DNA of 64,000 bases from Planctomycetota bacterium (GTDB lineage: Bacteria; Planctomycetota; Phycisphaerae; UBA1845), in the NCBI GenBank assembly GCA_030616775.1, contig JAUWWQ010000003.1, positions 10,794 to 74,793 on the forward strand. The letters run 5' to 3'. This document shows, in pieces, positions 1-62,336 of this stretch. The notes below the pieces were generated by a model, which saw only the letters and a program-made list of their open reading frames with translations, searched no databases and was not told the origin of the DNA. Each line of letters starts with the position of its first letter. The stretch's first letter is position 1. A program made the translations under genes and the position numbers.

Positions 1-908
1 TGGGATACGCATCTCCGGTGGTGGCCGGCCGGATGCTCGGCCTGGGCTGGGAACAGATGCAGCATGCCATCGGAATCGCGAGCTGCCGCTGCTTTACCCT
101 TGGCTGTGCCGTGGCGGGCAAGTTGACCATGATGAAGAACACCGTAAGCCCGATGGCCACGCGGGCCGGCGTCGAGGCGGCGCTTCTGGCCCAGAAGGGC
201 TATACCGGTCCGGAGAACGTCATCGACGGTAAAGAGGGGATGGTGCATTGCCTGGGCGAAGCTTGGGACATGAGCCAGCTGACCGACGGGCTCGGCAAGC
301 GGTTCATGATTACCGACTGCGGCATGAAATCCTTTCCCGTCGAAGCATTGATGCATTCGCCTACCTCAGCCACGCTGCACCTTCTTACGGAGCACCGGCT
401 TACGGCGGAAGACGTCAGGGAGGTGTTGATTGAGAGCATCGCCCGCGCGGCGGACATCCTTTCCGATCCGGCCAAGTACGACCCGCAGGGCAAGGAATCC
501 GCGGATCACAGTCTACCTTATTGCATCGCAGCCGCACTGGCTGAAGGCCGCGTGACACCGCTCGAGTTCAAGGAAGACAAGCTCTGGGATAAGCGCCTGC
601 GTTCGCAGATGGCCAAGGTGAAGGTCGTTGCGAACGAAGAGTTTGAGAACGCGTTCCCGGCCAAGCAGTGTGCCCGGGTTACGATCACGACGAGCGACGG
701 CCGGAAGTTGACGCATCAGGTGGACGTGCCCAAGGGCGATCCGCGCGACCCCATGACGACAGACGAGCTTCAGGTCAAGTTCGATGCCCTGGCCGAGCCG
801 ATTATGAGCGAGCAGCGGCGCACCAAACTCCGCGATGCGGTGTTTGCTTTGGACAAACTAGACGAAGTCGGCAAGCTTATGGCACTGACGGTCGTGGATC
901 GAAAGTAA
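1..908 (+). CDS. MmgE/PrpD family protein (2-methylcitrate dehydratase-like), C-terminal part; 5' end lies outside the window
   Basis: The reading frame is open to the window edge. The 296 aa resemble the C-terminal half of PrpD/MmgE proteins (DHSLPYCIAAAL region). It sits directly upstream of citrate-lyase-like genes. Confidence 0.75.
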   Translation, partial: GYASPVVAGRMLGLGWEQMQHAIGIASCRCFTLGCAVAGKLTMMKNTVSPMATRAGVEAALLAQKGYTGPENVIDGKEGMVHCLGEAWDMSQLTDGLGKRFMITDCGMKSFPVEALMHSPTSATLHLLTEHRLTAEDVREVLIESIARAADILSDPAKYDPQGKESADHSLPYCIAAALAEGRVTPLEFKEDKLWDKRLRSQMAKVKVVANEEFENAFPAKQCARVTITTSDGRKLTHQVDVPKGDPRDPMTTDELQVKFDALAEPIMSEQRRTKLRDAVFALDKLDEVGKLMALTVVDRK

Positions 909-913
909 TCCCT

Positions 914-940
914 GAGCCGCGAGCTTTAGCCCGCGCGGAG
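914..940 (+). repeat. 27-nt GC-rich palindromic element, variant copy (GAGCCGCGAGCTTTAGCCCGCGCGGAG)
   Basis: Read directly from the sequence. It differs at 3 of 27 positions from the copy at 58954-58980. Intergenic, just after the PrpD-like stop. Confidence 0.6.
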
Positions 941-1042: not shown

Positions 1043-2263
1043 ATGACCAGTATGACACAATCGAGGATGCAAACCGCCGAGGCCGGTCGGCGCGGCGAGG
1101 ATGTGCGATCGGACTGTTGGGTGAAGGTGACCCTGACCGGTTCGGGCGGGATCGAGGTCGACTTGAAGAGCAAGGTCAATTCGCTGTACGGTGAATCGAC
1201 TCGCCGACTTGTACGCAGCGAGCTTGACGCCCTGGGCGTTAAGAACGGCAAGATCGAGATCGAGGACGGCGGAGCGTTGCCGTTCGTAATATTGGCTAGG
1301 GTGGAGACGGCCGTAAGGCGCCTCGGCCTTGATGTCGCCGAAGGGTACATTCCCGATTTCGCTCCGGGGACGGAATACGGGACCGAGCGCGACCGATTCA
1401 GACGCTCGCGCCTGTACCTTCCCGGTAATGAGGCGAGGTTCATGCTCAACGCCGGCCTGCACAAACCGGACGGGATCATTCTCGATCTGGAGGACGGCGT
1501 GGCCCCGCCGGAGAAGGACGCCGCACGCCTTGTGGTGCGTAATGCACTGCGGAGCATCAATTTCCACGGGGCAGAGCGGATGGTTCGGATCAATCAGGGT
1601 GAGCGGGGCCTTGAGGATCTGGAATTCGTCGCCCCACACAACCTTCATGTGGTGCTTATCCCCAAGGTGGAAGCGCCCGAGCAGGTCAAGCGCGTCGACC
1701 GGAAAATCCGAGAACTGCTGTCGGCCCGAAAGATCGATCGGCCGGTTTATCTGATGCCCATCGTCGAGAGCGGCCTCGGTGCCATACGGGCATACGAGAT
1801 AGCCAGTGCGACAGACAGTATTGTGGCACTCACGATCGGACTCGAGGATTATACGGCTGACATCGGTGCAGCCAGAACCAAAAAGGGGCGCGAGAGCTTC
1901 TGGGCCCGGTCGCAGGTGGTCAATGCGGCCCGGGCGGCGGGCGTTCAGCCCATCGACACCGTTTTTTCCGACGTGGCTGATATGGAGGGGCTGCGCGACA
2001 GTGTACTTGAAGCTAAAGGACTGGGATTCGACGGTAAGGGTTGCATCCATCCGCGCCAGATCGCCGTCATTCATGAAGCCTTTGCACCCACGGAAGAAGA
2101 ACTCGCCAAGGCCAAACGGATTGTCGAGGCTTTCGAGGATGCGGAGCGTCGCGGCCTCGGCGTCGTCTCTTTGGGCAGCAAGATGATCGATCCACCGGTC
2201 GTGAAGCGGGCGCAGCGGGTTGTTTGGCTGGCTGAGGCGATGCAGCGTGCCACTGCTCTGTGA
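1043..2263 (+). CDS. Fusion of a citrate lyase acyl-carrier (CitD-like) domain to citrate lyase beta / citryl-CoA lyase (CitE, HpcH/HpaI fold)
   Basis: The N-terminal ~95 aa resemble CitD (GSGGIEVDLKSKV..LYGES). The remainder has CitE hallmarks (RSRLYLPGN, ILDLEDGVAP, GFDGKGCIHPRQI). Start choice is uncertain (three in-frame ATG in the first 9 codons). Confidence 0.8.
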   Translation: MTSMTQSRMQTAEAGRRGEDVRSDCWVKVTLTGSGGIEVDLKSKVNSLYGESTRRLVRSELDALGVKNGKIEIEDGGALPFVILARVETAVRRLGLDVAEGYIPDFAPGTEYGTERDRFRRSRLYLPGNEARFMLNAGLHKPDGIILDLEDGVAPPEKDAARLVVRNALRSINFHGAERMVRINQGERGLEDLEFVAPHNLHVVLIPKVEAPEQVKRVDRKIRELLSARKIDRPVYLMPIVESGLGAIRAYEIASATDSIVALTIGLEDYTADIGAARTKKGRESFWARSQVVNAARAAGVQPIDTVFSDVADMEGLRDSVLEAKGLGFDGKGCIHPRQIAVIHEAFAPTEEELAKAKRIVEAFEDAERRGLGVVSLGSKMIDPPVVKRAQRVVWLAEAMQRATAL

Positions 2264-2310
2264 GCAGTGCCTGTCATCCGGCGTGGTGTGCCAGTGCTCT
2301 GTGAGCAGTC
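2247..2310 (+). repeat. Two tandem REP units (41-nt spacing); the first is a perfect 8-bp stem / 3-nt loop hairpin (CACTGCTC TGT GAGCAGTG), the second is degenerate
   Basis: Read directly. Unit 1 (2247-2270) overlaps the last codons and the TGA stop (2261-2263) of the CitD-CitE ORF. Unit 2 (2288-2310) has two stem mismatches. Confidence 0.8.
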
Positions 2311-2331
2311 CCTGTCGCGGGAAATCTACAC

Positions 2332-2940
2332 ATGCGAAGAACCAGCTCGCCAACGACATACACTGCGGTTCTGGGCACATCCAGGAGCGAGCCTGTTCGG
2401 CGAAAGATACGTAAAGCCTTGGACGAGCCGGGCCATGCCCACTTCCTGACATACTCATGCCTTCGGTGTTGGCCGCTGCTGTCGAGCGATCGTATCCGCC
2501 ATTGGGTGGTGGAGGGGATGGAGGAGACACGTCGGAGGCTCGACGTAGCGCTATGGGCATATGTGATCATGCCGGAGCACGTGCACCTTCTTCTATTCCC
2601 GGAATCGGAGTGCCCGATGCGACGGGTACTGGCTGCCCTCAAACGCGGCGTGTCCAAGCGGGCCCGGAGCTATTTGATCGAAACGGGCCAGCATGACTGG
2701 CTCGAACGGCTGACCATCCGGCACCCTTCACGGACGGTTTTCCGATTCTGGCAGCCGGGCGGTGGCTATGATCACAACATTTGGAAGCAGCGCACACTGC
2801 GCGAGGTTGTCGGCTACATTCATGCGAATCCCGTGCGGCGAGGATTGGTCGAGTCGCCGGAGGACTGGTATTGGTCCAGTGCGAGGTTCTGGACGGGTGA
2901 GAAGAGCGTTCCGATTGCGATGGATCCAGTTGATGTGTAA
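2332..2940 (+). CDS. REP-associated tyrosine transposase (RAYT, IS200/IS605 TnpA-like Y1 HUH enzyme)
   Basis: HUH motif in MPEHVHLLLF and a catalytic-Tyr region YIHANPVRRGLV. Size is 202 aa. Flanked by inverted REPs. Confidence 0.85.
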   Translation: MRRTSSPTTYTAVLGTSRSEPVRRKIRKALDEPGHAHFLTYSCLRCWPLLSSDRIRHWVVEGMEETRRRLDVALWAYVIMPEHVHLLLFPESECPMRRVLAALKRGVSKRARSYLIETGQHDWLERLTIRHPSRTVFRFWQPGGGYDHNIWKQRTLREVVGYIHANPVRRGLVESPEDWYWSSARFWTGEKSVPIAMDPVDV

Positions 2941-2987
2941 GATGCTCGTGCGTAAATGGATGGCCGTTCGGCTGCAGATGCACAGAA

Positions 2988-3011
2988 GCACTGCTCACAG
3001 AGCAGTGGCAC
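2988..3011 (-). repeat. REP hairpin, inverted copy (GCACTGCTCACAGAGCAGTGGCAC)
   Basis: Exact reverse complement of 2247-2270. Confidence 0.85.
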
Positions 3012-5627: not shown

Positions 5628-7157
5628 CTATCCCTTTCCGCGCAGCTTGGCCAACCGTTTCTCAACCAGCCTCACCACGAGGTTGGGGTCGGCTTTGCCA
5701 CCAGAGAGTTTCATGACCTGGCCGCGGAGGAAGCCGGCTGCGGCCTGGGCTTTCTTGGGATTGCCGAGTGCGTCTTGGACGGCCTTGGGGTTGGCGGTAA
5801 AGGCCTGTTCGACCCAGGCTTCGGTGGCGGCTGTGTCGTGGACCTGGACGAGCCCCAGTTCTTGCGCGAGATGGAGCGGTGAGGGAGTGGAGCGTTGGGC
5901 GTCCGCGCGGGCTGAAGCCCGCGGCTCGGCGTGCTGGAGCATGACCTGTGCCAAGCGGTTGGCAGCAGTTTTGTTAATGGTACCGTCAGCGGTCATCCTG
6001 GCCAGCTCGACAATCTGTTCGGGCTCAACGCCGAGGTCCGTTACGTGAACATTTCGATCATTGGCAAGCTTGAGCCAGACATTGACAAACTGTTTGCCGG
6101 CAACGTCAGCAGGTGCGCCGGCTGCAATCACTTTCTCGAGCAGGTCGGCGGTTCCACGATGGTTGACGATTGTGTCAGCATCCCTGGTCGATAAGCCATA
6201 CTCGCTGACCAAGCGCTGACGCCGGGCGATCGGTAGCTCAGGCAGCATCGCGCGAATCTCGTCCAGCATCCCATCAGTAATCTCGACGGGTACCAGATCG
6301 GGATCGGGGAAATAACGGTAGTCCGGGGCGCTCTCTTTGTCTCGTTGATACTCGGTGATGCCCTTCTCGGCGTTCCAGCCCCGGTTTTCGTTTGGCCGCT
6401 TGTCCTGCTGATAGTCGTGATCTTCCGTCCAGGCGGTGAGCTGACGCCGGGCTTCATAGGCGATGGCATCGCGCACGTGCCGGAAGCTGTTGAGGTTCTT
6501 GATTTCGGTGATTGGCGTGCGGTACTCCCGACCGTCGCAGCGGATCGCGATGTTCACGTTGGGCTCGAACCGCATTTGCCCCTTTTGCATGACGCCTTCG
6601 CTGACGCCGAGATAGGTCACCAGCCGTTGCAGCTCGATGCAGAACGCATACGCCTCATCGGCGGACGAGAGGTCCGGCTCGGTGACGATCTCCAGAAGCG
6701 GCGTACCGGCCCGGTTGAGATCGACAAGCGTGCACCCGGGCAGATCGTGAAGGCTCTTGCCGGCGTCCTCCTCGAGGTGGGCGCGGGTTATTCGGACGCG
6801 CTTCATTCGCCCCCGCACGGGAATATCGAAGAATCCGCGGGCGGCCAGCGGCAGATCGTATTGGCTGATCTGGTAGTTTTTCGGGAGGTCGGGATAGTAA
6901 TAGCTCTTCCGGTCCCATTTGGTGTGGCGTGCGATCTTGCAGTTCAGTGCCAGGCCGGTCAAGACCGCATGGGTGAAAGCCTGACGATTGATGACCGGCA
7001 ACGCCCCCGGATGCCCCAGGCAAACCGGGCAGACGCAGGAGTTCGGAGGGGCGTCGTACCTGACGGGGCAGCCGCAGAACATTTTCGTCTTGGTGTTAAG
7101 CTGAACGTGGATTTCCAAGCCGATGATCGTACGGATTGTTAACGTCGGTTCAGGCAT
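5628..7157 (-). CDS. gatB: Asp-tRNA(Asn)/Glu-tRNA(Gln) amidotransferase subunit B
   Basis: 509 aa with GatB motifs (GLEIHVQLNTKTKMFCGC, RFEPNVN, GFLRGQVMK tail). Confidence 0.95.
   Translation of the reverse strand: MPEPTLTIRTIIGLEIHVQLNTKTKMFCGCPVRYDAPPNSCVCPVCLGHPGALPVINRQAFTHAVLTGLALNCKIARHTKWDRKSYYYPDLPKNYQISQYDLPLAARGFFDIPVRGRMKRVRITRAHLEEDAGKSLHDLPGCTLVDLNRAGTPLLEIVTEPDLSSADEAYAFCIELQRLVTYLGVSEGVMQKGQMRFEPNVNIAIRCDGREYRTPITEIKNLNSFRHVRDAIAYEARRQLTAWTEDHDYQQDKRPNENRGWNAEKGITEYQRDKESAPDYRYFPDPDLVPVEITDGMLDEIRAMLPELPIARRQRLVSEYGLSTRDADTIVNHRGTADLLEKVIAAGAPADVAGKQFVNVWLKLANDRNVHVTDLGVEPEQIVELARMTADGTINKTAANRLAQVMLQHAEPRASARADAQRSTPSPLHLAQELGLVQVHDTAATEAWVEQAFTANPKAVQDALGNPKKAQAAAGFLRGQVMKLSGGKADPNLVVRLVEKRLAKLRGKG
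5901..5927 (-). repeat. 27-nt palindromic element copy inside the gatB coding sequence, in frame (EPRASARAD)
   Basis: The reverse complement is 27/27 identical to 58954-58980. Codon phase was checked against the gatB start at 7157. Confidence 0.85.
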
Positions 7158-7250: not shown

Positions 7251-8003
7251 TTACGATCGGCTGGCAATGGCCACTGCCAGAGGATTGACCAGGTTCGGCA
7301 CGACCTTGTCGGTCGCCAGCTCCTCAGCTACATCGAACAGCGTCCCCAGGGCATCGACCAGCGATGGGTGTTCGACACCCCAATACTTGCGGGTGGTAAG
7401 GAAGACGCTGATCGGTTCGCTCTCGAAGGTATCGCTGCGCACCTCAAACGTGGTGGTACGAGACTTCACCTCGACGAAGGCCTGTAGATCGCACTCCGGA
7501 GACATCGCGATGCCGTAATAGGGTTGGGCGTCGATGATGTGTGCGGCCTCGTCGGCGAACAGAAACCCGCTGGCCGCGTGCTCACCGAGCAGTGTCTCCG
7601 CAACCAGCCGGTCGTGGTTCCCGCGGTATTCGAGATCGAACCCGTAGATCAGCTCGAGGTGATCGAAATCAATGTCGCTGAATGACAGGTGATAGGGCGC
7701 CTGGTTGAGGATCAGCTCTCCGAACCGGCGCACATCATCCGTATGGGGAGGCGCGAAGTGGCCGAATCGCAGGCTGCTGGCATCCAGCCTGATCCAGCGA
7801 CGTGACCCGTGCTGGTTGGCCTCCTCCTCCAACACCAGGCAGTCGCCGTCTCGGCGGCGCAACTTCTGCAGGCCCGGATATTCTTTACGAATCCGGTCAA
7901 AGAAATGCAGGACCGTTTCTCGCTCGAGTTTCATTTCAAGCTTGAGGAAGAGCCGAACGCTCACGTAGAAATCGTCACATACCGCGCCGAGGCCATCATT
8001 CAT
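7251..8003 (-). CDS. Hypothetical protein (250 aa), no family recognised with confidence
   Basis: Long ORF with coding-like composition and no signal peptide. Confidence 0.5.
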   Translation of the reverse strand: MNDGLGAVCDDFYVSVRLFLKLEMKLERETVLHFFDRIRKEYPGLQKLRRRDGDCLVLEEEANQHGSRRWIRLDASSLRFGHFAPPHTDDVRRFGELILNQAPYHLSFSDIDFDHLELIYGFDLEYRGNHDRLVAETLLGEHAASGFLFADEAAHIIDAQPYYGIAMSPECDLQAFVEVKSRTTTFEVRSDTFESEPISVFLTTRKYWGVEHPSLVDALGTLFDVAEELATDKVVPNLVNPLAVAIASRS

Positions 8004-32301: not shown

Positions 32302-33466
32302 GCATAGCGTCTTCGACGACCGCGGCGTGGAAACGCTCGAGGTTGGGGGGTTCGATTCGGGCCTTGCTGCGGAGCTGGGCGACTTGCTCGACGACGAGGC
32401 GGTTGTAGGACTCGATGAGGACACGCTCTTTGAGCCGTGGTTGAAGGGTTTGAAAGTCCGGCTCGTGGCCGGGGTCGATCTGGTCGCAACGCACCAGAAA
32501 GAATCCATCATCCGTTTCGATGATGTTGCTGACCGAACCTGCGTCCAAGCTGTGTAACGCCTCAACAGCAGGTTCAAATCGTTCGCGTACACTTCCTTTA
32601 GTAACCCAGCCCCAGGATCCGCCTTCATCGGCATGAAGCCCGTCCGAGTAGCGGCGAGCGACCTCGGCGAAGTCGACGCCGCTATCCAGTTCGGCCCGGG
32701 CGGTTTGAATGCGTGAGCGGGCCTGCATACGGGCGCTCTCGAACTGATCACGTGTCGGAGAGCCGGCATCTTTTCCAGCGCGATCGCGCAGGCGGACGTC
32801 AATCAACGACATGCGCCGTCGGGCCGGCCGGCGGAATGAATCGGCATTGGCCTCGAAGGCGGCGAGCAGCTCGGCCCGGGTCGGCTCGGCCACCTTCGGC
32901 TTGACCTCCTGTTCAAGGTAACTGGTAATGATGATCTCACGGCGGACCTTTTCGCGCGCGTCTTTAAGTGTGCGTCCCTGTGACTCCAACTGTCTCTCGT
33001 AGCGCCGTGGAACACCGTCGTGCTCGGTGGTTATTATCTTGCGGATCTGTGCGTCAACGTACGTGTCGACTTTGGCGCTCATCTCAGGTGAGAATCGCAG
33101 AGAGGCCTGCTGATACAAAAGCATTTCCGCAATCTTGTCAGTGATCAACCGGGCCGCTCGACGGTCGAGATAGGTTCGATAATCCTCGGGAGCAAGAGTC
33201 TTGGCTTTGGTCGACAGCTCGTCATGGAGGCCCAGCCAAAGCTCATGTGCCTCGACGGTCTCGGCATTGACGGTAAGGCGACTGACAGCGAAAGTCCCCG
33301 CGGCGTCGTGATAAGCGGGTGAAGGATTCGAGCGTGACTGCGTAGGCGGCGATGTAGTAATGCGATCGGGGTTGGATTGCACCGGGACCATGCACGCTGT
33401 GTTCCAGATGCATAATGCACCTGTGGCCAAGGCGCCCCGCACAATCCGCCGAAGAGAGTCTTTCAC
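32285..33466 (-). CDS. SurA/PpiD-like periplasmic chaperone with a parvulin-type PPIase domain
   Basis: Signal-like N-terminus. Parvulin region FAEVARRYSDG...GGSWGWVTKG...FFLVRC. Confidence 0.75.
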   Translation of the reverse strand: MKDSLRRIVRGALATGALCIWNTACMVPVQSNPDRITTSPPTQSRSNPSPAYHDAAGTFAVSRLTVNAETVEAHELWLGLHDELSTKAKTLAPEDYRTYLDRRAARLITDKIAEMLLYQQASLRFSPEMSAKVDTYVDAQIRKIITTEHDGVPRRYERQLESQGRTLKDAREKVRREIIITSYLEQEVKPKVAEPTRAELLAAFEANADSFRRPARRRMSLIDVRLRDRAGKDAGSPTRDQFESARMQARSRIQTARAELDSGVDFAEVARRYSDGLHADEGGSWGWVTKGSVRERFEPAVEALHSLDAGSVSNIIETDDGFFLVRCDQIDPGHEPDFQTLQPRLKERVLIESYNRLVVEQVAQLRSKARIEPPNLERFHAAVVEDAMHRIAN

Positions 33467-36400
33467 GTCACTGCCTCCACACGTGATCCGGCTCTGACAA
33501 ACATTTGCCGTAATATCGGTAACAGGGTCACCGGTTCAAGACAGTCGGGCGGGAGCCGCAGGTGAATCGTCTTGGGGTCCGGCATACGCACGCTTCCCGG
33601 GGCGTCGGTGAAAAGGGGCTCAGCCGTGGGCAAATCGTCAATCAGGAAGACCACGTCCGGCGGCCTCAGGCTGATCGACTGTATCCCGAAGCGACGCCCG
33701 TACACGCGGATTTCCGCCAGCTCCAGCAGCCGTTGCACCTCCTTGGGGAACGGGCCGAACGCGTCTATCAGGTCCCGCTCGAGCTGGGCCAGATCGGCTT
33801 CGGTCCGACAGGCCACGATCCGGCGGTATATTTCGATCCGTGATCGATCCGCGGTGATATAGTGTGGCGGGATATGGGCGGCCACGTCAAGGTCCACGTG
33901 AACCGGCGGAGGCGTCGGATCGGGTTCACTCTTCAAGCGACAGACGGTCTGTTGGAGTAGGCGGCAGTACATCTCATAGCCAACCGCTGCGATGTGCCCG
34001 CTCTGCTCCCGCCCCAGGAGGTTGCCCGCCCCACGGATTTCCAGATCGCGCATGGCAATCCGGAATCCGGCGCCCAGTTCGCTAAACTCCTCGATCGTCT
34101 TTAGCCGTTTAGCGGCTTTGCTGGTGGGGGGATGATCGGGCGAGAGCAGCAAATAGCAATAGGCTCGATGGCTCGATCGTCCCACACGACCACGGAGCTG
34201 GTGGAGATCGGCCAGTCCGAACCGCTCAGCGCGGTGGATAAAGATCGTGTTGACGGTGGGAATGTCGATACCGCTTTCGATGATAGTGGTGGTCACGAGC
34301 ACGTCGGCCTTGCGGCGCACGAACTGGTGCATGACCGATTCCAGCTCGCCGTCTTTCATTTGGCCGTGGGCGTAGACCACCTTTGCTTCCGGTACGATCT
34401 GACGGATTTTGTCGGTCATGCCCGCGATGGAGCGGACGAAGTTGTGTACGAAGTAGACCTGCCCGTCCCGGTTCAGCTCACGGAGGATGGCGTTGCGGAT
34501 CAGATCCCGATTGAACGGACCCACCTGTGTGGCGATGGCCCGGCGGTCCACGGGCGGTGTCTGCAGCGAGCTGATGTCGCGGACGCCCATAAGTGACATG
34601 TGCAACGTTCGGGGGATCGGTGTGGCGGTCAGCGTCAGTACGTCAACGGTTTCGCGCATGGCTTTCAGTCGCTCCTTGTGCTCCACGCCGAAACGCTGCT
34701 CTTCGTCGATAACCACCAGGCCCAGGTTGGCAATGGATACGTCCTTGCTAAGAAGCCGATGGGTGCCGATGACGATGTCCACCTGCCCCTTCTTGAGCTG
34801 CGCGACAAGCTTCTTTTGCTCGGATGGGCTGCGAAACCGCGACAGGCATCCGACTACGAAGGGGTACTCGGCCATGCGCTCTCGGAACGTGGCGTAATGC
34901 TGCTCGGCCAGCACGGTCGTGGGGACCAGGAGGGCGACCTGCTTCCCATATTCGACAATCTTGAAGGCCGCTCGCATGGCCAGTTCCGTCTTGCCGTAAC
35001 CGACGTCGCCGCAGACCAGGCGATCCATCGGACGCGGTCGCACCAGATCCTCGCGGATATCCTTGGCGACAAGCAACTGATCTTCGGTCTCTTCATAAGG
35101 GAATGCGGCCTCGAACTCGCGCTGCCACTCGGTGTCAGTCGGATAGGGCGTACCGGCCGCCTCATCCCGGATCGCTTGTACGTGGAGGAGCGATTCGGCG
35201 AGCTCCGAGACGGCGTCAGCGACCTGTCGCTTGCTCTTGCTCCAACGTTTGCCGCCGACTTTGGACAGCTCCGGCCGCCGGCCCCCGGCGCCGATGTATT
35301 TTTGCACCAGGTCTATCTGCGAACACGGGACGTAGATCATGGCTTTGTCGGCGAATTCCAGAGCGAGGAATTCTTCCCGCTGACGTGACGTTCCCTTGCG
35401 TATCTTCTTTAGCCCGCGATAGATCGCGATCCCGTGCATCACATGCACGACCAGTTCACCGGGCATAAGATCCAGCCAGGACTCCAGAGGTCGACCGGCA
35501 TGAAGTCGTCGGACGCGCCGTCGCTGCCGATGGCGGTGGAAGATTTCGGAATGCGGGATGACCAGCGTCCCGGTCGCAGTCCACTCGAAACCTCGATGCA
35601 GGACGCCGATGCCGGTGTGAATCGACTCGGCAAGGTCGGGTGCCTGCTCCGAGACCATCTCGATCAGCCGCTGGCGCTCCCCCTCGGCGTCGCAGATCAC
35701 ATGCACCTCATGGTCGCAGGCGACACGGCAGAGCTCCGCGACGGCATCGGTCGCATTACTCTCAAATCGGGACACGGACGTGACACCCATGTCGAACTCG
35801 TCTTCGTCTTTGGCAGTCGCCGATCCGAATGACGACAGATAAAGCTGCGGGAATCGGCCTGTTCGTGCCAGCACCTCGGTCACGTCGTAGATGCGGTCCG
35901 ACGCTCCCAGACGCGCTTGAAGTATTTCGCCCATGGTCTGGATTTCACCCGGCCCATCGAGAATGATCAGGGTGTCAGATGGCAGGTAGGCGGTCAGATC
36001 CGTGACCGCCGCGCTGTCCACCCCTTGATCGCCGGGCAAGGCCACAACGGACAGCGAAGTCAGCGTCTCGATGGAACGCTGAGTGCTGGCATCAAAACGC
36101 CGGATCGATTCAACCTCATCGCCGAAGAACTGAATGCGAACGGGGTCTGTTTCACCCGGCGCGAACAGATCGACAATATCGCCGCGCTGGGCCACATCGC
36201 CGGGCGATTCCACGAGTTCAAGCCGCTGGAAGCCGCGGTTTATGGCCCACGCGACGATCGACTCCGGCGATCGGGCAGCGGGGCAATCCCCGCCTGTGCC
36301 CCTGACAACCTGCAGCGTGTGGTGTCCAAGCGCCTCTGGATCGGGTACGGGCTGCATGAGAGCCTGAATCGGCGCGACAATCAGGGTTGCAGGTGAGCAA

Positions 36401-36759
36401 GCGGTCGGATCTCCGCGCAGGCTAGAGCCTGCGGCTCCCTGAAGACGGCTGCACAGGTGAAGCCGCTCGGCCTCGATCTCACCGCTGGCCGCACCCTCAC
36501 CGGGCAACGTCTCCCAGGCTGGGAACAGCTCGCATGACCGGCCCAGGAAGAGCTCCAGGTCGTCGCGGGCGTCGTCGGCTTGTTCCAGGTGGGCGGTTAT
36601 GTACAGGTGGGTCCGCTTGCGGGCGGCTGCGACCAGAGCGGCCACCATAGGCGCAGACGATCCCCACACGCCCGAAACATGAACCACCCCGGTCGAACCG
36701 GAAAGCCGTTCATTAAGGCGCTTCACCCGAGGATCGGAGGCGATCGATGGGATCACCAT
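33463..36759 (-). CDS. mfd: Transcription-repair coupling factor
   Basis: 1098 aa. UvrB-homology N-terminus, CarD/RID domain, DEAD/H helicase motifs (GDVGYGKTE, VIDEEQRFG), TRG motif and C-terminal D7. Confidence 0.97.
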   Translation of the reverse strand: MVIPSIASDPRVKRLNERLSGSTGVVHVSGVWGSSAPMVAALVAAARKRTHLYITAHLEQADDARDDLELFLGRSCELFPAWETLPGEGAASGEIEAERLHLCSRLQGAAGSSLRGDPTACSPATLIVAPIQALMQPVPDPEALGHHTLQVVRGTGGDCPAARSPESIVAWAINRGFQRLELVESPGDVAQRGDIVDLFAPGETDPVRIQFFGDEVESIRRFDASTQRSIETLTSLSVVALPGDQGVDSAAVTDLTAYLPSDTLIILDGPGEIQTMGEILQARLGASDRIYDVTEVLARTGRFPQLYLSSFGSATAKDEDEFDMGVTSVSRFESNATDAVAELCRVACDHEVHVICDAEGERQRLIEMVSEQAPDLAESIHTGIGVLHRGFEWTATGTLVIPHSEIFHRHRQRRRVRRLHAGRPLESWLDLMPGELVVHVMHGIAIYRGLKKIRKGTSRQREEFLALEFADKAMIYVPCSQIDLVQKYIGAGGRRPELSKVGGKRWSKSKRQVADAVSELAESLLHVQAIRDEAAGTPYPTDTEWQREFEAAFPYEETEDQLLVAKDIREDLVRPRPMDRLVCGDVGYGKTELAMRAAFKIVEYGKQVALLVPTTVLAEQHYATFRERMAEYPFVVGCLSRFRSPSEQKKLVAQLKKGQVDIVIGTHRLLSKDVSIANLGLVVIDEEQRFGVEHKERLKAMRETVDVLTLTATPIPRTLHMSLMGVRDISSLQTPPVDRRAIATQVGPFNRDLIRNAILRELNRDGQVYFVHNFVRSIAGMTDKIRQIVPEAKVVYAHGQMKDGELESVMHQFVRRKADVLVTTTIIESGIDIPTVNTIFIHRAERFGLADLHQLRGRVGRSSHRAYCYLLLSPDHPPTSKAAKRLKTIEEFSELGAGFRIAMRDLEIRGAGNLLGREQSGHIAAVGYEMYCRLLQQTVCRLKSEPDPTPPPVHVDLDVAAHIPPHYITADRSRIEIYRRIVACRTEADLAQLERDLIDAFGPFPKEVQRLLELAEIRVYGRRFGIQSISLRPPDVVFLIDDLPTAEPLFTDAPGSVRMPDPKTIHLRLPPDCLEPVTLLPILRQMFVRAGSRVEAVT
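36411..36437 (-). repeat. 27-nt palindromic element copy inside the mfd coding sequence, in frame (AAGSSLRG)
   Basis: CTCCGCGCAGGCTAGAGCCTGCGGCTC matches the intergenic copy at 60061-60087 at 24/27 positions. Confidence 0.65.
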
Positions 36760-56034: not shown

Positions 56035-57597
56035 ATGGAGGTCACACTCGACGGGAACTCGCTATCGATCGAACAGATTCATTCAGTGGCTCGCCGTGGG
56101 GCCAAGGTGTTGGTGTCCCCGGAAGCCCGGGCGAATGTCCAACGCTCCCGTGACGTTGTCGAGCGATGCGTAGCGGCTGGGACCGCTGTCTATGGCGTTA
56201 CCACCGGCATCGGGGAGTTCGCCCGCATCCGCATCTCGCTCGAGCAATGCGCCGAATTGCAGCGACGAATCGTTTACAGCCACTCAGCGGGCACGGGTGA
56301 TCCGCAGCCCAAAGATGTGGTTCGGGCGGCCATGCTGTGCCGGGCCAACACTCTGGCTAAGGGTTACTCCGGTGTGCGTCTTTGTTTGTTGGACACCGTG
56401 ATCGACATGATCAACAAGGGCGTGGTCCCCTACATCAACGAAAAGGGTTCGTTGGGGACCAGTGGTGACCTCTCGCCGCTTTCGCAATTCGCCGAGGTGG
56501 CCATCGGCGAGGGGCGGGCCTATTACAGGGGCGAACTGATGCCGGGCGGGGAGGCGATGAAGCGGGCCGGCATCAAGCCCACCGATCTGACCTATAAGGA
56601 GGGCCTCGGCCTGATCAACGGCTCGCAGATGATGACCGGCGGGGCGGCACTTTTGATCTATGATGCCGAGCGCATCCTCAAGAACGCCATGATTGCCAGC
56701 GCTATGACACTGGATGCCCTTCGCGCCGTCGCCCGGGCGTTCGATCCGCTGGTTCATCGCGTTCGACCTTTCCCAGGGCAGAATGCGGTAGCCGGCAATC
56801 TGCTACGCCTGATCGCCAACAGCGAGGTGATGGCCCATCGAACGGGGCGCGTTCAGGACGGCTATAGCATTCGTTGCACGCCGCAGATCATGGGTGCATC
56901 GCTTGATACTCTGGAACACGTCCGCAGGATCATCAATATCGAGGTCAACGCCGCAGCGGATAATCCCCTCTTTTTTGGGGAAGAGGACGAATACTTCGCC
57001 GCGGGCAACTTCCACGGGCAGGGGATCGGGATGGTCGTCGACTTTCTATGCATCGCCATGTCGGAGGTGGCCAACCTTTCCGAGCGGCACACCAACCGGT
57101 TACTAAACCCGGTGCTCTCCGGCTTGCCCGACTTTCTTGTGGAAGGTAAAGGGCTCAACTCCGGTCTGATGGTGTCGCAATACACGGCTGCGGCGCTGGT
57201 CTCGGAGAATAAGGTGCTGTCTCATCCCGCCTCGGTTGACTCGATCAGCGTATCGGCTGATCAGGAGGATCATGTCAGCATGGGGCCGATCGCGGTACGC
57301 AAGTGCACCGAGATCCTCAAGAACGTCCGGACGGTGTTGGCGATCGAGATGATGTCGGCCGCGCAGGCGTTCGAGTTCCATGAGGGTCGTCGGCCCGGCA
57401 AGGGAACCGCCACTGCGTACGACCTGATCCGCTCGAAGGTACCCAAGCTGGTGGACGACCGGGTGCTCTACCCGGACATCGAGGACATCCGTCAAATGGT
57501 CGAGGATTGCAGCATCTTAGATGCGGTGGAGAAGGAGATCGGGCCGCTCAACCTGGCCCGCGACATGGAACTACCCCGGCCGAACGTCCCGGCGTAG
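56035..57597 (+). CDS. hutH: Histidine ammonia-lyase family enzyme (MIO-dependent aromatic amino acid lyase/aminomutase family)
   Basis: 520 aa. MIO region GSLGTSGDLSPLS, SH pair in VYSHSAG, and QEDHVSMG. The symbol is tentative because the MIO triad is TSG and no other hut genes are adjacent. Confidence 0.8.
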   Translation: MEVTLDGNSLSIEQIHSVARRGAKVLVSPEARANVQRSRDVVERCVAAGTAVYGVTTGIGEFARIRISLEQCAELQRRIVYSHSAGTGDPQPKDVVRAAMLCRANTLAKGYSGVRLCLLDTVIDMINKGVVPYINEKGSLGTSGDLSPLSQFAEVAIGEGRAYYRGELMPGGEAMKRAGIKPTDLTYKEGLGLINGSQMMTGGAALLIYDAERILKNAMIASAMTLDALRAVARAFDPLVHRVRPFPGQNAVAGNLLRLIANSEVMAHRTGRVQDGYSIRCTPQIMGASLDTLEHVRRIINIEVNAAADNPLFFGEEDEYFAAGNFHGQGIGMVVDFLCIAMSEVANLSERHTNRLLNPVLSGLPDFLVEGKGLNSGLMVSQYTAAALVSENKVLSHPASVDSISVSADQEDHVSMGPIAVRKCTEILKNVRTVLAIEMMSAAQAFEFHEGRRPGKGTATAYDLIRSKVPKLVDDRVLYPDIEDIRQMVEDCSILDAVEKEIGPLNLARDMELPRPNVPA

Positions 57598-57730
57598 GGG
57601 CGGCAGTAGGGCAGAGTCTGGCGCAGCCAGGCTGTGGGCGCGCTTGCCGTCGACAAGTTTCACCAAACCTGGGTGCCATGTTATTGTCGTGGACGTGCCG
57701 GCAATTACCCAGGCGATTTGGACCTTCAAG

Positions 57731-58945
57731 GTGAAAGCAATCGCAGTTGTCGGTGCTGGGACGATGGGGGCGGGGGTTGCACAACTGGCGGCTACGCATG
57801 GCTGCATCGTCTACCTGAATGATATCGATGGCGAGGTGATTCAGCGCGGGATCGACGGCATCGTCGCTCGCCTGGAGCGCTCGGTCGACAAGGGTAGGCT
57901 GAAGCGCCGCGATCGGGATGCCATTTTGGGCCGCATCAAGCCCGCGGACGCAATTTGCGACCTGAGCGACGTCGATCTAGCGGTCGAGGCGGTTGTCGAG
58001 GACCTTGCTGTCAAACAGGAGGTGTTCGCCACGCTCGAAGAGGGCCTTTCGGCGTCGGCTGTCTTGGCCACTAACACCTCGTCCCTATCCATCACCCGGA
58101 TTGCGGAAGCAGTCAAGAACCCATCCCGCGTGGTTGGCATGCATTTTTTCAATCCCGCACCGGTCATGCCGCTTGTAGAGGTCATCGCCGGGCGTGCCAG
58201 TGACGAAGCATCCGTCGATTTCGCGTGCAAAGTGGCGGAAGGTTGGGGTAAGGTCCCTGTGCGGGCAAAGGACACGCCGGGGTTCATCGTGAACCGTGTG
58301 GCCCGCGGCTTCTATCTGGAGGCGCTTCGACTCCGCAGCGAGGGTGTGGCCGGTGTTGATGAAATCGACGCGGTGATGCGCACGCACGGCAAATTCAAGA
58401 TGGGGCCGTTCGAGCTGATGGACCTGATCGGTCTCGACGTGAACCTGGCGGTCAGCACATCGATCTGGGAGCAAACGGGCAAGCCTGCTCGGTTCAGGGT
58501 GCACGAGATGCAACAGCAGCTCGTCGACCAGGGTCATCTGGGCCGCAAGTCGGGTCGAGGTTTTTACCTGCATGACGGCGAGACGCCCCTGCCGGCCGTT
58601 GCAGTTGATCGGCGCAGCTACGAGCTTTCACCGCTGCTCTCCGATGCCATGTTGGCGTTTTCGGCCAGGGCCGGGGCCGCACAGACATCCAGCACCGAGC
58701 GGTACGTTTTCTGCCGGATTCTCAGTGCGGTCATCAACGAAGCCGGTTTGCTCTTTTCGGACAACGTAGCCACTCGCAAGGATATCGACATCGCCATGGT
58801 CAAGGGCGCCAATTACCCGAAGGGTCCGCTGGCCTGGGCGGATGACATCGGCCATCGCACGGTGCGCGGCCTGCTCAAAGGCTTGAACAGCACCGTGTCC
58901 GACGGGCGTTATGAGCCGGCCCCGCTGTTTGCCGACGCACAGTGA
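57731..58945 (+). CDS. 3-hydroxyacyl-CoA / 3-hydroxybutyryl-CoA dehydrogenase (PaaH-like, extended C-terminus)
   Basis: Rossmann motif IAVVGAGTMGAGVA and NTSSLSI, with duplicated C-terminal helical domains. The GTG start at 57731 is a guess; the ORF is open from 57521. Confidence 0.8.
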   Translation: MKAIAVVGAGTMGAGVAQLAATHGCIVYLNDIDGEVIQRGIDGIVARLERSVDKGRLKRRDRDAILGRIKPADAICDLSDVDLAVEAVVEDLAVKQEVFATLEEGLSASAVLATNTSSLSITRIAEAVKNPSRVVGMHFFNPAPVMPLVEVIAGRASDEASVDFACKVAEGWGKVPVRAKDTPGFIVNRVARGFYLEALRLRSEGVAGVDEIDAVMRTHGKFKMGPFELMDLIGLDVNLAVSTSIWEQTGKPARFRVHEMQQQLVDQGHLGRKSGRGFYLHDGETPLPAVAVDRRSYELSPLLSDAMLAFSARAGAAQTSSTERYVFCRILSAVINEAGLLFSDNVATRKDIDIAMVKGANYPKGPLAWADDIGHRTVRGLLKGLNSTVSDGRYEPAPLFADAQ

Positions 58946-58953
58946 CTCCCCCG

Positions 58954-58980
58954 AGCCGCGGGCTTCAGCCCGCGCGGACA
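58954..58980 (+). repeat. 27-nt palindromic element, reference copy GAGCCGCGGGCTTCAGCCCGCGCGGAC
   Basis: 7-bp stem CGCGGGC/GCCCGCG with loop TTCA. It starts 9 nt after the dehydrogenase stop. Confidence 0.85.
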
Positions 58981-59111: not shown

Positions 59112-59846
59112 ATGCCGCAGAATGAAACGGCGCCGGAGCATCCTGACGGCGACACGACCAGCATCTTACGCAGAACCGTTCAGTCCGTTGTGGCTGGGAT
59201 GTCAGGGCTCGCGTCATCAGACCGAAAGGAGGTCATCCTCTCGGTCGGACGTGTGTTCCAAGCGATGGTCGCGGGTAAGTTCTTGTCCCAGCTGGAGAGA
59301 GAGTGGGAGGACCTCCGCAGGAAGGGGCGGATCAAGGACGACTATGATAGCACGTCGCAGAGCAGGGCTTGTCTAAGCGACTTGCTTCGCTATTTGGACT
59401 CGGAGGTTCCCGACGAAAAGCGCCTTGATCTACTGAAGAAGATCTTTCTCGTTGCGGCGACAGAAGAGGTCTCTGATCGAGAAAGCCATCTCCCACAACA
59501 ATTCATGCAGATCTGCCGAAACCTCTCCACCGGGGAGATCCTCGTCCTGGTGACCACGTACGCGGTTGCGGACCAGAAGGACTACAAGTCTAGTGCACCC
59601 AACGAAGCCCAGACGTGGTTGCGTCTGATCGGCGACAGGTCTGGTCTGAAGCACGAGGAACTCGTGGAGCTTCACGAACAATCACTCATGGAGAAACATC
59701 TGCTCACGCGGCGCTTCTACGGCGACCGCAGCGGTGTATCGCTCGGTAAGCATTTTCGCCTGAGCAATCTTGGATACGAGCTGTGCAGGTTTCTCGCCCA
59801 TTACGACAAGGAAACGGAGTCGGCCGCCCAGCCATCGGATGGGTGA
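59112..59846 (+). CDS. Abi-alpha (DUF4393)-like protein, possible abortive-infection/defence gene
   Basis: The helical pattern LLRYLDSEVPDEKRLDLLKKIFLVAATEE...QQFMQICRNLSTGEILVL resembles, from memory, the Abi_alpha core (leDdeLqelwAnLLasa...iLkqLsp.eA.iL). Not verifiable without a search. Confidence 0.4.
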   Translation: MPQNETAPEHPDGDTTSILRRTVQSVVAGMSGLASSDRKEVILSVGRVFQAMVAGKFLSQLEREWEDLRRKGRIKDDYDSTSQSRACLSDLLRYLDSEVPDEKRLDLLKKIFLVAATEEVSDRESHLPQQFMQICRNLSTGEILVLVTTYAVADQKDYKSSAPNEAQTWLRLIGDRSGLKHEELVELHEQSLMEKHLLTRRFYGDRSGVSLGKHFRLSNLGYELCRFLAHYDKETESAAQPSDG

Positions 59847-60060: not shown

Positions 60061-60087
60061 GTCCGCGCAGGCTGAAGCCTGCGGCTC
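60061..60087 (-). repeat. 27-nt palindromic element, inverted copy with a compensatory stem change (GTCCGCGCAGGCTGAAGCCTGCGGCTC)
   Basis: Relative to 58954-58980, one G-C pair becomes A-T through changes on both arms. Confidence 0.85.
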
Positions 60088-60215
60088 AGGGCGGCGCGTA
60101 GTGGTGAATTATAGCTGGACTCGCCATAACCCCCCGTGAGCGTCGCAGACGGTTGAAGACTCACAGGTCCGCCTTGACGGCGGACCCATGCCACCCGACG
60201 CGTGAAGAACGACCT

Positions 60216-62336
60216 ATGAACATCCGATCCGCCCGGGCAAACTGTGTTGAGCTTGTGACGCTTGGTGCTATTCTGCTGCTCTTTGCGGTGGTTTCTGTAG
60301 TCGGCATCACGTGGGGTTTGCCGAGTCGGACAATCGACAAGTATCTCTTCGGCGATGATCCGCCGTGGCCGGGGGAGAAGATCTATCGGCTGGCCGGGGC
60401 CGCGGAGAAGTTCTCGCCCGATCGCGGGGCCGATGTCGATGCCGATCCGCTGGATAGATCAGGGGACGACCCCGTCCTGCTGACTGAGACCGAAGAGGAC
60501 ATTGCCAAGATCTATCTTCGCTATCGGCTGTACACCTATCAGCCTGACGAGATGATCACGATGATGGCCCTGGCGGGGATGAAGCCACGCAGGCTTGAAC
60601 TCGACCCCAGGCTCTATCAGTACGGCGGCCTGTTCATTTACCCGGTGGGGGCGCTGATCGGGGCGTGTGGTTCTGTCGGCTTGATCGACGTGCGCAGCGA
60701 CATCGTCTACTACCTCGACAACCCGGATGAGTTCGGCAAGTTCTACATGGTCGCCCGGGCATACTCGGCCGTTTGGGGACTCGTTGGTGTGGTGATCGTC
60801 TTTGCCATCGCCAGACGATTGAGCGGCCTGCGAGCCGGGCTCCTTGCGGGGCTGTTGTTTACGCTCATGCCGGTTGTCGTCTGCATGGCCCACGAGGGCA
60901 AGCCGCACCTGCCCGGGGCGGTCCTTATGCTGACGGCCGTGCTGTTCGCAATGCGGTATCTCGATTATGCCACCTCGCGCAACTGGTGGCTGATGTGCAT
61001 CTGTTGCGGGGCGGCGCTGGGGATGGTGTTGTCGTCCTGGCCGATCTTTGTGTTGATTCCGTTGATCGCATGGCTGGAAACACGAGGCACGAAGGGCGGC
61101 ACCCCGCGCGGAGTCACAAACGCTGAGCAATCGCCACTCCCGCACGTTAGTCCGCGTGGGCTCCCGATAGATCGGGATTCCATTCCGCCCGCGGCTCGGA
61201 ACGGAAACGCAGGCGTCCTTGGCGTTGGGATCAAGCGAACCGTCGGTGGGGTCGTCATCGGGGCGCTCGTGTACTCTATCACGAACCCGTACATCTTGAT
61301 TAACGCGTTCGTCAATCGCGAGGTGCTGAGCAGCAATTTCGGCAACTCGCTGGCCATGTACGAGATTTCCCGGATCGGCGAGGGATTTATTCGCGTGCTC
61401 GAATTGACCGTCGAGGGTGCGACACTGCCGATAGTGGCTCTCGGGGCAGTTGCACTTTTCGTTTCGTGTCTCCGAATGGGTGGCGCGGGTAAACGTAGCT
61501 TGGACGTGGTTGGTGGTTACGCAAACCGGGGCGAGCAGGTTGACGATCGGCATACCGGCGCTTCGCTTGGGCTCGGCACCCGGCATGACACCCGGTATGA
61601 CACCCGAAAGAAAAACGCGTTGATCATTCCACTGGTGGTTCCTGCGGCCGTGCTCTTCCTGCAGTTCGTGCTGATCGGTGCCGGCAAGCCGGCCGAATAT
61701 GGCCGGTTCGGCGTCTTCACCAACACAGCTCTGGCGATCGGCACCGCCTGCCTCCTGGCCCACCGCTGGACGAAACTGCGCGAGATCGTCAACTGGGTCC
61801 CGGCGATATTCGTTCTAATCTGGGTTGCGGGCTTTGGGGCCGCCTACCTGCGCAACTTCTACATCGATTCCACGGGGCAAAACTCCCGGACCTTGCTGGC
61901 GGAAGAGACCACTTGGTTGGAGCTTCGTGATGCCGTGGATTCCAATCTGACGGATTCTGCTGGACTAGCGCCCATCACGGTTCAAAGCGAGCCCGCGCCG
62001 TACTGCTTCCCTCCCCTAGATTTCCGGAAGACCGTTGTGCTTCTCGTGAAGCAACCCGAACCGCCGGCAACCGCGACTTGCAGGCGCCTGTTCCTCCGAA
62101 CGCTTGATCGGCGGACCGGGGCAAGGAGCGGCACATGCCAGGATGATCCGTTCGCCCGGTGCATAAGCAGGTTTGAACGTCCCGAAGCAGAGGCATGGTC
62201 GGACCCAATCGACACACCGATAAGTTGGGCCAATAAGCCTTTCGAGGTCTTGAGCTACGTCACAGTCTACTACGGTAACGAATCCCCCTCACGAATGCAG
62301 GAACCTCCAGAACGCGGGCGGACGCAGCAGCCCTGA
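60216..62336 (+). CDS. Large polytopic membrane protein, GT-C glycosyltransferase-like (ArnT/PMT-like), with low-complexity insertions
   Basis: Many TM segments and an early DE-containing loop (YQPDEMI). Start taken at the ATG at 60216. Confidence 0.45.
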   Translation: MNIRSARANCVELVTLGAILLLFAVVSVVGITWGLPSRTIDKYLFGDDPPWPGEKIYRLAGAAEKFSPDRGADVDADPLDRSGDDPVLLTETEEDIAKIYLRYRLYTYQPDEMITMMALAGMKPRRLELDPRLYQYGGLFIYPVGALIGACGSVGLIDVRSDIVYYLDNPDEFGKFYMVARAYSAVWGLVGVVIVFAIARRLSGLRAGLLAGLLFTLMPVVVCMAHEGKPHLPGAVLMLTAVLFAMRYLDYATSRNWWLMCICCGAALGMVLSSWPIFVLIPLIAWLETRGTKGGTPRGVTNAEQSPLPHVSPRGLPIDRDSIPPAARNGNAGVLGVGIKRTVGGVVIGALVYSITNPYILINAFVNREVLSSNFGNSLAMYEISRIGEGFIRVLELTVEGATLPIVALGAVALFVSCLRMGGAGKRSLDVVGGYANRGEQVDDRHTGASLGLGTRHDTRYDTRKKNALIIPLVVPAAVLFLQFVLIGAGKPAEYGRFGVFTNTALAIGTACLLAHRWTKLREIVNWVPAIFVLIWVAGFGAAYLRNFYIDSTGQNSRTLLAEETTWLELRDAVDSNLTDSAGLAPITVQSEPAPYCFPPLDFRKTVVLLVKQPEPPATATCRRLFLRTLDRRTGARSGTCQDDPFARCISRFERPEAEAWSDPIDTPISWANKPFEVLSYVTVYYGNESPSRMQEPPERGRTQQP
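61150..61197 (-). repeat. Split/expanded copy of the palindromic element inside the glycosyltransferase-like ORF, in frame (SPRGL...PAAR)
   Basis: GTCCGCGTGGGC, then a 25-nt insert containing its own hairpin CCCGAT-AG-ATCGGG, then GCCCGCGGCTC. Confidence 0.55.
61577..61612 (+). repeat. 12-bp tandem repeat (CACCCGGCATGA / CACCCGGTATGA / CACCCGAAAGAA) in coding sequence
   Basis: Read directly. It encodes TRHD-TRYD-TRKK. Confidence 0.7.

Follow-up and report, generated by a model that had tools for sequence, protein, structure and literature searches.

Sequence analysis of a 64,000-nt stretch of DNA from a Planctomycetota bacterium (contig JAUWWQ010000003.1, positions 10,794 to 74,793; this whole stretch is hereafter called the window) indicated that mfd, the gene encoding the transcription-repair coupling factor, contains a copy of a small palindromic repeat that is read through in the frame of the gene. 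We assign a probability of roughly 0.65 to the reading that this segment of mfd is a vertically inherited in-frame insertion of a family of small hairpin repeats of the Phycisphaerae, a family that is unusual in its class-wide conservation and in its intragenic share of about 40%.

The copy in mfd lies at positions 36411–36437 (CTCCGCGCAGGCTAGAGCCTGCGGCTC), and the initial annotation of this DNA had reported that it matches an intergenic copy at 60061–60087 (GTCCGCGCAGGCTGAAGCCTGCGGCTC) at 24 of 27 positions. Reading of both sites confirmed this identity, the three differences being the first base and two bases of the loop. The hairpin core in mfd comprises 26 nt (36412–36437, plus strand, TCCGCGCAGGCTAGAGCCTGCGGCTC), the longer interval including one extra flanking base, and consists of a left stem at 36416–36422, the loop TAGA at 36423–36426 and a right stem at 36427–36433. 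The mfd gene itself (33463–36759, minus strand) encodes 1098 amino acids (aa) in a frame that is unbroken across the element. The Pfam domains UvrB_inter, CarD_TRCF_RID, DEAD, Helicase_C and TRCF were all found above cut-off in this open reading frame (ORF), which is intact and has the full domain set that defines Mfd, namely the UvrB-homology module, the RNA polymerase-interacting domain (RID), the superfamily 2 (SF2) translocase and the TRCF C-terminal domain. On the minus strand, nine codons read through the element (36412–36438; GGA GCC GCA GGC TCT AGC CTG CGC GGA) and correspond to residues G108–G116 (GAAGSSLRG), embedded in ...LQGAAGSSLRGDPTACSP..., which bears out the earlier proposal that mfd contains a second intragenic, in-frame copy of the palindromic element.

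These residues belong to a linker of the N-terminal module (residues 107–125, QGAAGSSLRGDPTACSPAT, encoded at 36385–36441 on the minus strand) that lies between a helix ending in ...ERLHLCSRL and the strand LIVAPIQALMQPVP. In an alignment of the module with 21 relatives, the element was located at the start of the linker, between a conserved helix (...AERLRLCxxL) and a conserved strand ((I/V)IV(A/T)PIQALMQPVP), while the linker itself showed no sequence conservation and ranged from 6 to about 80 residues in length. Linkers of most planctomycete Mfds fall within 6–14 residues. Many planctomycete Mfds have linkers of 6–8 residues, relatives with 57–62% identity have 11–14 residues, and the window Mfd and a relative that is 83% identical to it (P0001) have 19. 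No protein-level conservation of the segment was found in distant Mfd orthologues; such conservation was the result by which the initial annotation would have been refuted. The linker of Escherichia coli Mfd (...LSTLYQL-PTMQRG-VLIVPV; structures 2B2N and 2EYQ) comprises about 6 residues (PTMQRG) versus 19 in the window protein, as the initial annotation had stated, and that of mycobacterial Mfd structures comprises about 11–13. This part of Mfd is, in general, a hot spot of length variation.

Mapping of the segment onto a structure, which like the alignment of orthologues had been suggested as a check, gave a consistent picture. The AlphaFold model of Mfd residues 1–244, which had a mean predicted local distance difference test (pLDDT) score of 85 and matched the solved Mfd structures 6AC6 and 2EYQ with template modeling (TM) scores of 0.6–0.7, has a helix at residues 92–114, a coil at 115–125 and a strand at 126–130, with the element at the end of the helix and running into the loop. 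Confidence was the lowest in the domain at residues 111–121, with pLDDT of 53 for residues 111–120 and below 50 for residues 118–121. The model and the alignment suggest that the site in mfd is tolerant of insertions. Two relatives showed other peculiarities. One (P0007) has an insertion of about 80 residues with tandem GTRSPE/GTRNPE repeats at the very same linker. In the other (P0003, contig L201), the N-terminal half of Mfd runs into DegT/DnrJ aminotransferase sequence within one ORF, which may reflect either a rearranged gene or a chimeric assembly of that metagenome-assembled genome (MAG).

The relative with 83% aa identity provided information on the age of the insertion, as its contig (L113) has a decayed copy of the element at exactly the same codons. 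The L113 sequence GATCCACAGGCTTTGGCAAGTGCGGAG and the window sequence GAGCCGCAGGCTCTAGCCTGCGCGGAG are in register and identical at 20 of 27 bases, with flanking codons that are about 90% identical, and the palindrome is broken in L113. Since this identity compares with an identity of 0.70 at 4-fold degenerate sites of the two mfd genes, the element in mfd appears to be diverging at an approximately neutral rate, with no excess conservation of the kind seen in the gatB copy described below. Among Mfd relatives of about 60% identity, no remnant of the element was found in the linkers of L200, L201, L202 and L115, and the linker of L114 gave only a marginal match, which 4 of 65 control windows equaled. 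The insertion predates the split between the lineages of the window and of L113, because L113 has a homologous copy and the relatives of about 60% identity have no trace of one. It is likely to have been inherited rather than acquired recently, and its presence in two independent assemblies shows that it is real.

The other intragenic copy in the window is located in gatB (5628–7157, minus strand; 509 aa, with GatB_N and GatB_Yqey domains). This copy (5902–5927, plus strand) matches the family consensus at all 26 positions, and its minus-strand codons (GAG CCG CGG GCT TCA GCC CGC GCG GAC, 5901–5927) encode EPRASARAD, residues 411–419. About 30 orthologues have an empty site of the form R-x-E|SP, compared to which gatB of the window has a 42-nt insertion of 14 codons (PRASARADAQRSTP; 5883–5924, minus strand). 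In L117, gatB retains these 42 nt in decayed form, in L118 the copy is rearranged, and in L119 the site is empty. This empty-site comparison strongly suggests that the gatB element is a true insertion. The frame used in gatB is different from that used in mfd, in agreement with the initial annotation, the two being one base out of phase, and the two copies have the same orientation with respect to the genes that contain them.

A 22-nt core of the element (CCGCGCAGGCTNNAGCCTGCGG) matched the mfd copy and the copy at 60061–60087 with no mismatches and three more sites in the window with up to three mismatches. These five matches (917–938, minus; 5903–5924, plus; 36413–36434, plus; 58956–58977, minus; and 60063–60084, plus) compare with 0.00 expected from 100 dinucleotide-preserving shuffles. 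In public genomes, one per species, a family scan with the query TCCGCGCRGGCTNNAGCCYGCGGCTC identified exact 26-mers in at least 112 contig stretches; among the 80 stretches listed, at least 32 assemblies at the species level were represented and the hosts were nearly all Phycisphaerae, Phycisphaerales or Planctomycetota. One exact 26-mer was present outside the Planctomycetota, in the closed chromosome of a Bipolaricaulota MAG (L037, positions 452–477; CP070725.1), and could be due to horizontal transfer, misbinning or chance.

The conserved block derived from 209 copies is G.R.(G)TCCGCGC(G/A)GGCT(G/A)AAGCC(C/T)GCGGCTC(G), a unit of 26–28 nt, and information content collapses beyond positions –5 to +26, with no signal in the flanking sequence. 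The unit folds as a 7-bp stem (CGCGGGC/GCCCGCG) with a 4-nt loop, T(G/A)AA, and has constant unpaired flanks, TCCG on the 5' side and GCTC on the 3' side; this foot, this tail and the loop are nearly invariant. In the foot, (G)TCCG, the T is present in 85%, the first C in 94%, and the second C and the following G in 100% of the copies, while G is found at position –1 in just 48% and conservation is lacking at position –2. The gatB copy reads CGTC there. At stem positions 7 and 18, 151 copies have G:C and 38 have A:T, and few are mixed. Among 79 distinct variants, compensatory double changes were observed at six of the seven stem pairs (for example, CGAAC/GTTCG, CGGCC/GGCCG and CCGGC/GCCGG), and 93% of the stem pairs were intact versus 24–40% when the partner was slid. 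Judged from these sequences, the anatomy would be that of a hairpin recognized by a protein. No match to the DNA core or to the encoded peptides, and nothing relevant on palindromic repeats of the Phycisphaerae, was found in the searchable literature, and this small tagged palindromic repeat with intragenic copies is a so far undescribed family.

Copies of the family occur singly and in groups. Among neighboring copies at most 150 nt apart, 29 pairs were arranged head-to-head and 31 in tandem, with none tail-to-tail. In the head-to-head pairs, the TCCG ends face each other and the gaps are quantized at 0–3 and 35–37 nt, and the tandem pairs mostly have a period of 42 nt and form arrays that are tandem duplications of the element together with about 16 flanking nt. 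Arrays of this period were found in L020 (2444–2595), L059 (3086–3195), L081 (6357–6466) and L024 (1875–1942), and their spacers of about 16 nt are alike within an array and unlike between loci. The likeness of such arrays to a mini-CRISPR is superficial, as tandem duplication accounts for them. The period of 42 nt equals the size of the insertion in gatB.

According to a crude gene caller based on G+C content at third codon positions (GC3), 88 of 211 copies (about 42%) are intragenic, with no bias in orientation (45:43), and 57% lie between genes. Intergenic copies were located between unidirectional (52), convergent (25) and divergent (7) gene pairs, and the distance from the stop codon of the upstream gene to the copy was at most 30 nt in 23 of 121 cases. 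Under a stricter coding test, 30 copies were confidently translated, and all five stop-free frames were used: the frame EPRASARA(D/E), as in gatB, by 16 copies; SARAEARGS by five; PRGLKPAA by four; the RAAGFSPRG type, as in mfd, by four; and SRGLQPAR by one. The tolerance of translation in several frames that the initial annotation had proposed from two copies in the window therefore extends to the whole family, in real genes across the clade. Its further statement that only one of the six frames contains a stop is correct for the family consensus (VRAG*SPRL) and incorrect for the mfd copy, whose CTAG loop leaves two frames with a stop. The single stop frame was rejected as a sign of adaptation or of selection for translatability: in composition-matched shuffles of a 26-mer with 81% G+C, 66% had no stop-containing frame and 27% had one, and since base composition thus predicts the near-absence of stops, this near-absence is no evidence of selection for translation.

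Several host genes recur. The uvrA genes of six genomes contain copies within a shared set of two or three variable loops of the protein, where they are read in different frames, and the copy in UvrA of L019 encodes GAAGSSLRGD, the same peptide as in the window Mfd. A 2091-aa UvrA-like ORF of L064 (263–6538, minus strand), which apparently contains two UvrA units in one frame, has seven in-frame copies in both orientations. Other recurrent hosts are the genes for alanyl-tRNA synthetase (AlaRS, alaS), class I tRNA synthetases and heptosyltransferases. A bias to DNA-repair genes is not claimed, as uvrA accounts for 6 of 54 hosts in a count made without a background control, but alaS, tRNA synthetases and heptosyltransferases recur too.

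Small hairpin repeats mobilized in trans are known from the repetitive extragenic palindromic (REP) sequences and their doublets (REPINs), which are associated with REP-associated tyrosine transposases (RAYTs, TnpA_REP), as in REP and bacterial interspersed mosaic elements (BIMEs) of E. coli and REPINs of Pseudomonas (Nunvar 2010; Bertels & Rainey 2011; Ton-Hoang 2012). Such systems have been surveyed (PMC3733652, PMC6006769), and intragenic REPs have been documented (PMC3733652). Like REPs and REPINs, the present element is a hairpin of 20–40 nt with a constant unpaired foot, many dispersed copies and compensatory stem changes, and it likewise shows predominant head-to-head doublets, a preference for the 3' side of genes and long persistence at orthologous sites. 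Differences include the foot, which is GT[AG]G in REPs and (G)TCCG here, with no GTAG or GTGG on either strand; the RAYT gene, which is bracketed by its own repeat in REP systems, whereas no such RAYT was found for this element and the RAYT of the window has a different hairpin; the location of copies, REPs being extragenic with few exceptions and this element being about 42% intragenic by the crude caller, with the remainder favoring the 3' side; and the range of the consensus, which is usually species- or genus-specific for REPs and is common to a class-level clade here.

The CGTC-tagged REP super-family (Di Nocera, De Gregorio & Rocco 2013, PMC3733652) also consists of small tagged hairpins with 4–5-nt loops, predominant head-to-head dimers, rare tail-to-tail dimers, intragenic units and no associated transposase gene. 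The tag nGTC of the element partly resembles the CGTC/TGTC of these repeats. However, CGTC REPs have a stem of 8–9 bp that opens with complementary A/T pairs and a CCA tail, in contrast to the 7-bp stem of the element, which starts with CGC and is all G/C at its base, and its tail GCTC(G), and they have been reported in Proteobacteria, Chlorobi, Bacteroidetes, Spirochaetes and Thermotogae, not in Phycisphaerae (PMC3733652). Class 3 HUH-Y1 enzymes of Planctomycetes and Acidobacteria are associated with high-copy atypical hairpins that have a 5' CnGA foot (Quentin et al. 2018, PMC6006769). These hairpins, like the element, are REP-like, occur in high copy in the same phylum and have a non-GTAG foot, and enzymes of this class are a candidate kind of mobilizer, but their foot CnGA differs from the 5' foot TCCG of the element (GAGC on the other strand), in which CGGA is found only 3' of the stem on the reverse strand.

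Within genes, the element behaves like the Rickettsia palindromic elements (RPEs), reportedly described by Ogata and colleagues in 2000 as in-frame elements in many unrelated protein genes that are translated in several frames and tolerated owing to their location at protein surfaces. RPEs are discussed in PMC3733652. Both RPEs and the present element are in frame and read through at insertion-tolerant sites of unrelated ORFs (mfd, gatB, uvrA, alaS and others for the element), whereas RPEs are about 100–150 bp in length, add 30–50 residues and are restricted to Rickettsia, and the element has 26–28 nt, adds 9–14 residues and is found in free-living Planctomycetota. By analogy, the element may work like REPs and REPINs and, within genes, like RPEs.

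If the segment of mfd is an inherited insertion of such a repeat, the hairpin would form in single-stranded DNA, and a structure-specific enzyme that acts in trans, of the HUH/Y1 (RAYT-like) kind or equivalent to it, would copy it. Copies would disperse alone, in head-to-head doublets or in short tandem arrays to sites 3' of genes or inside genes, and selection would remove those intragenic insertions that break the frame, bring in the loop TGA or TAA, or fall outside a tolerant loop. Only insertions that keep the frame, contain no stop and are tolerated by a loop would survive such selection, which would explain why the mfd copy is located in a linker of variable length within the UvrB-homology module, and GAAGSSLRG in Mfd would be a neutral passenger peptide without a role.

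Because the family is organized like REPs and REPINs, a RAYT gene was sought. The window contains one at 2332–2940 (plus strand), which scored 90.2 bits against the NCBIfam model REP_Tyr_transpos (NF047646; cut-off 80) and has the motifs EHVH, WQ and YIHANP. It is bracketed by another hairpin, GTGCC-ACTGCTC-TGT-GAGCAGT-G, at 2251–2269 and 2292–2310 and inverted at 2989–3007, and the region 2251–3007 represents a complete REPtron. This hairpin is not dispersed, as a single match with three mismatches (7576–7594) was found elsewhere in the window, and its exact pattern was absent from the other fetched loci. About 80 metagenomic relatives of the RAYT (L120–L199) have the same bracket layout, with stems that co-vary with the enzyme, and the mfd-type element was found around these relatives only at low density, with 9 copies in 276 kb versus 5 in the 64-kb window.

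Several observations weigh against a mobile hairpin as the source of the mfd segment. The RAYT of the window was rejected as the cognate enzyme, since it and its approximately 80 relatives are bracketed by a different hairpin. In other genomes, about 750 kb of sequence surrounding more than 200 copies yielded no HUH-Y1 ORF, either in phmmer searches for which E. coli RayT and the RAYT of the window served as queries or with regular expressions for motifs, class 3 signatures included. Neither the window nor any of the fetched loci contained a class 3-type ORF (NHVH...YV..EQ). This absence is not decisive, because only about two RAYT-flanking copies are expected in a sample of about 750 kb. The energy of the hairpin is unexceptional for its G+C-rich composition (z of –0.6 to –1.9), and since thermodynamic support is weak, the case for the structure rests on the covariation. 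In gatB, the added unit is 42 nt rather than the 26–28-nt core, and neither a target-site duplication nor the exact boundary of the insertion is definable from the single clean empty site. That the nine element codons in mfd are translated is suggested by the continuity of the ORF. Finally, the consensus-perfect gatB copy has 22 of 27 element bases in common with L117, even though identity at 4-fold degenerate sites between the two genes is saturated at 0.44, and a perfect 26-mer over this distance is not expected of a purely neutral passenger. This copy could owe its state to selection acting on the hairpin, to gene conversion by copies elsewhere or to a renewed insertion at this site, and ascertainment favors intact copies within the window.

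The conservation in gatB is also the point from which two other explanations start, both of which we consider rather unlikely. In the first, the hairpin is a functional host signal in DNA or RNA, involved in protein binding, mRNA decay or processing, replication or supercoiling, as has been proposed for REPs and BIMEs, and its copies, those within genes included, are selected or continually homogenized rather than being neutral passengers. Occurrence of the same 26-mer in at least 32 species, the combination of invariant flanks and loop with a co-varying stem, and the state of the gatB copy are what such a signal would predict, and the position of copies is suggestive as well, as a stop codon lies no more than about 10 nt from the start of two of the window's three intergenic copies and 23 of the 121 stop-to-copy distances do not exceed 30 nt. 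However, the mfd copy diverges from that of L113 at an approximately neutral rate and the L113 palindrome is broken, the presence of copies varies between close orthologues, no T-run follows the hairpins, no Rfam family matched, and the ascertainment of intact window copies reduces the weight of the gatB case. The unbiased orientation of intragenic copies argues against a role at the RNA level there. The second explanation, which we likewise put forward only tentatively, is that the hairpin, rather than decaying as a passenger, is actively maintained at its consensus even in essential genes (gatB, uvrA and mfd), across lineages with saturated synonymous sites, by a Phycisphaerae-wide, non-RAYT system that also systematically remodels protein loops. 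The maintaining system would then be a structure-specific enzyme of a new kind, either a nuclease or a recombinase, or else a process of copy correction (homing or gene conversion) acting on the 26-nt hairpin.

DNA uptake sequences (DUS) of Neisseria and uptake signal sequences (USS) of Pasteurellaceae are fixed duplex sequences built by substitution, with a reported bias to genome-maintenance genes. A drive of this kind, in which biased uptake and recombination fix a motif at any site that tolerates it, genome-maintenance genes included, is very improbable for the present element. It would account for one short sequence being conserved throughout a clade, for copies in mfd and in uvrA of six genomes, and for the use of several frames, as DUS and USS too are conserved over a family or class and are often intragenic in tolerated frames. 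Against this, DUS and USS involve no change in length, whereas the gatB copy is an insertion of 42 nt and not substitution-built; the stem co-varies, which means that structure rather than a fixed duplex sequence is conserved; head-to-head-only doublets and tandem arrays are not DUS-like; and the hosts are mainly large housekeeping proteins (AlaRS, tRNA synthetases and heptosyltransferases) rather than repair proteins specifically.

Selection of the repeat as a recurring linker peptide, with the likeness in DNA being secondary, would fit the occurrence of GAAGSSLRGD in both the window Mfd and the L019 UvrA and the recurrence of EPRASARA(D/E) in many proteins, but it is effectively refuted by the use of five frames and both orientations with unrelated peptides, by the intergenic location of more than half of the copies, by block boundaries at the nucleotide level and by stem covariation. 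A chance palindrome or an assembly artefact, suggested by the commonness of short palindromes in G+C-rich DNA and by the unexceptional hairpin energy, is refuted by the five copies found versus none expected, the hundreds of copies in public genomes and the independent metagenome contig with a homologous copy at the same codons.

An inherited in-frame insertion of a hairpin repeat in mfd would have consequences for how such repeats and their host proteins are viewed. Small palindromic repeats are usually regarded as extragenic, whereas about four in ten copies of this class-wide 26-nt hairpin family are inside genes, where they add 9–14 residues, or arrays thereof, to loops of essential proteins such as Mfd, GatB, UvrA and AlaRS. 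Intragenic copies thus provide a natural map of insertion-tolerant loops, and they call for caution in the annotation and structure prediction of proteins from these MAGs, which have repeat-derived low-complexity segments. The family is also a compact, sequence-defined system for the study of REP-like spread without an evident cognate RAYT, and the neighboring REPtron, with a hairpin unlike that of the family, allows two hairpin systems to be compared within a single genome.

The three remaining copies in the window are intergenic. The copy at 60062–60087 (plus strand), between the ORFs 59112–59846 and 60153–62336 (both plus strand), belongs like the mfd copy to the subfamily with an A:T stem pair. 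The copy at 914–939 (minus strand), in which one stem pair is broken, starts about 6–9 nt past the stop codon of the ORF 18–908 (plus strand), and the copy at 58953–58978 (minus strand), which has the consensus sequence, starts about 8–10 nt past that of the ORF 57521–58945 (plus strand). No Rfam family was detected in the whole window at gathering thresholds. The latter two copies have the same orientation relative to the upstream gene and are not followed by a T-run, and they may act at mRNA 3' ends as REP-like structures, not as intrinsic terminators.

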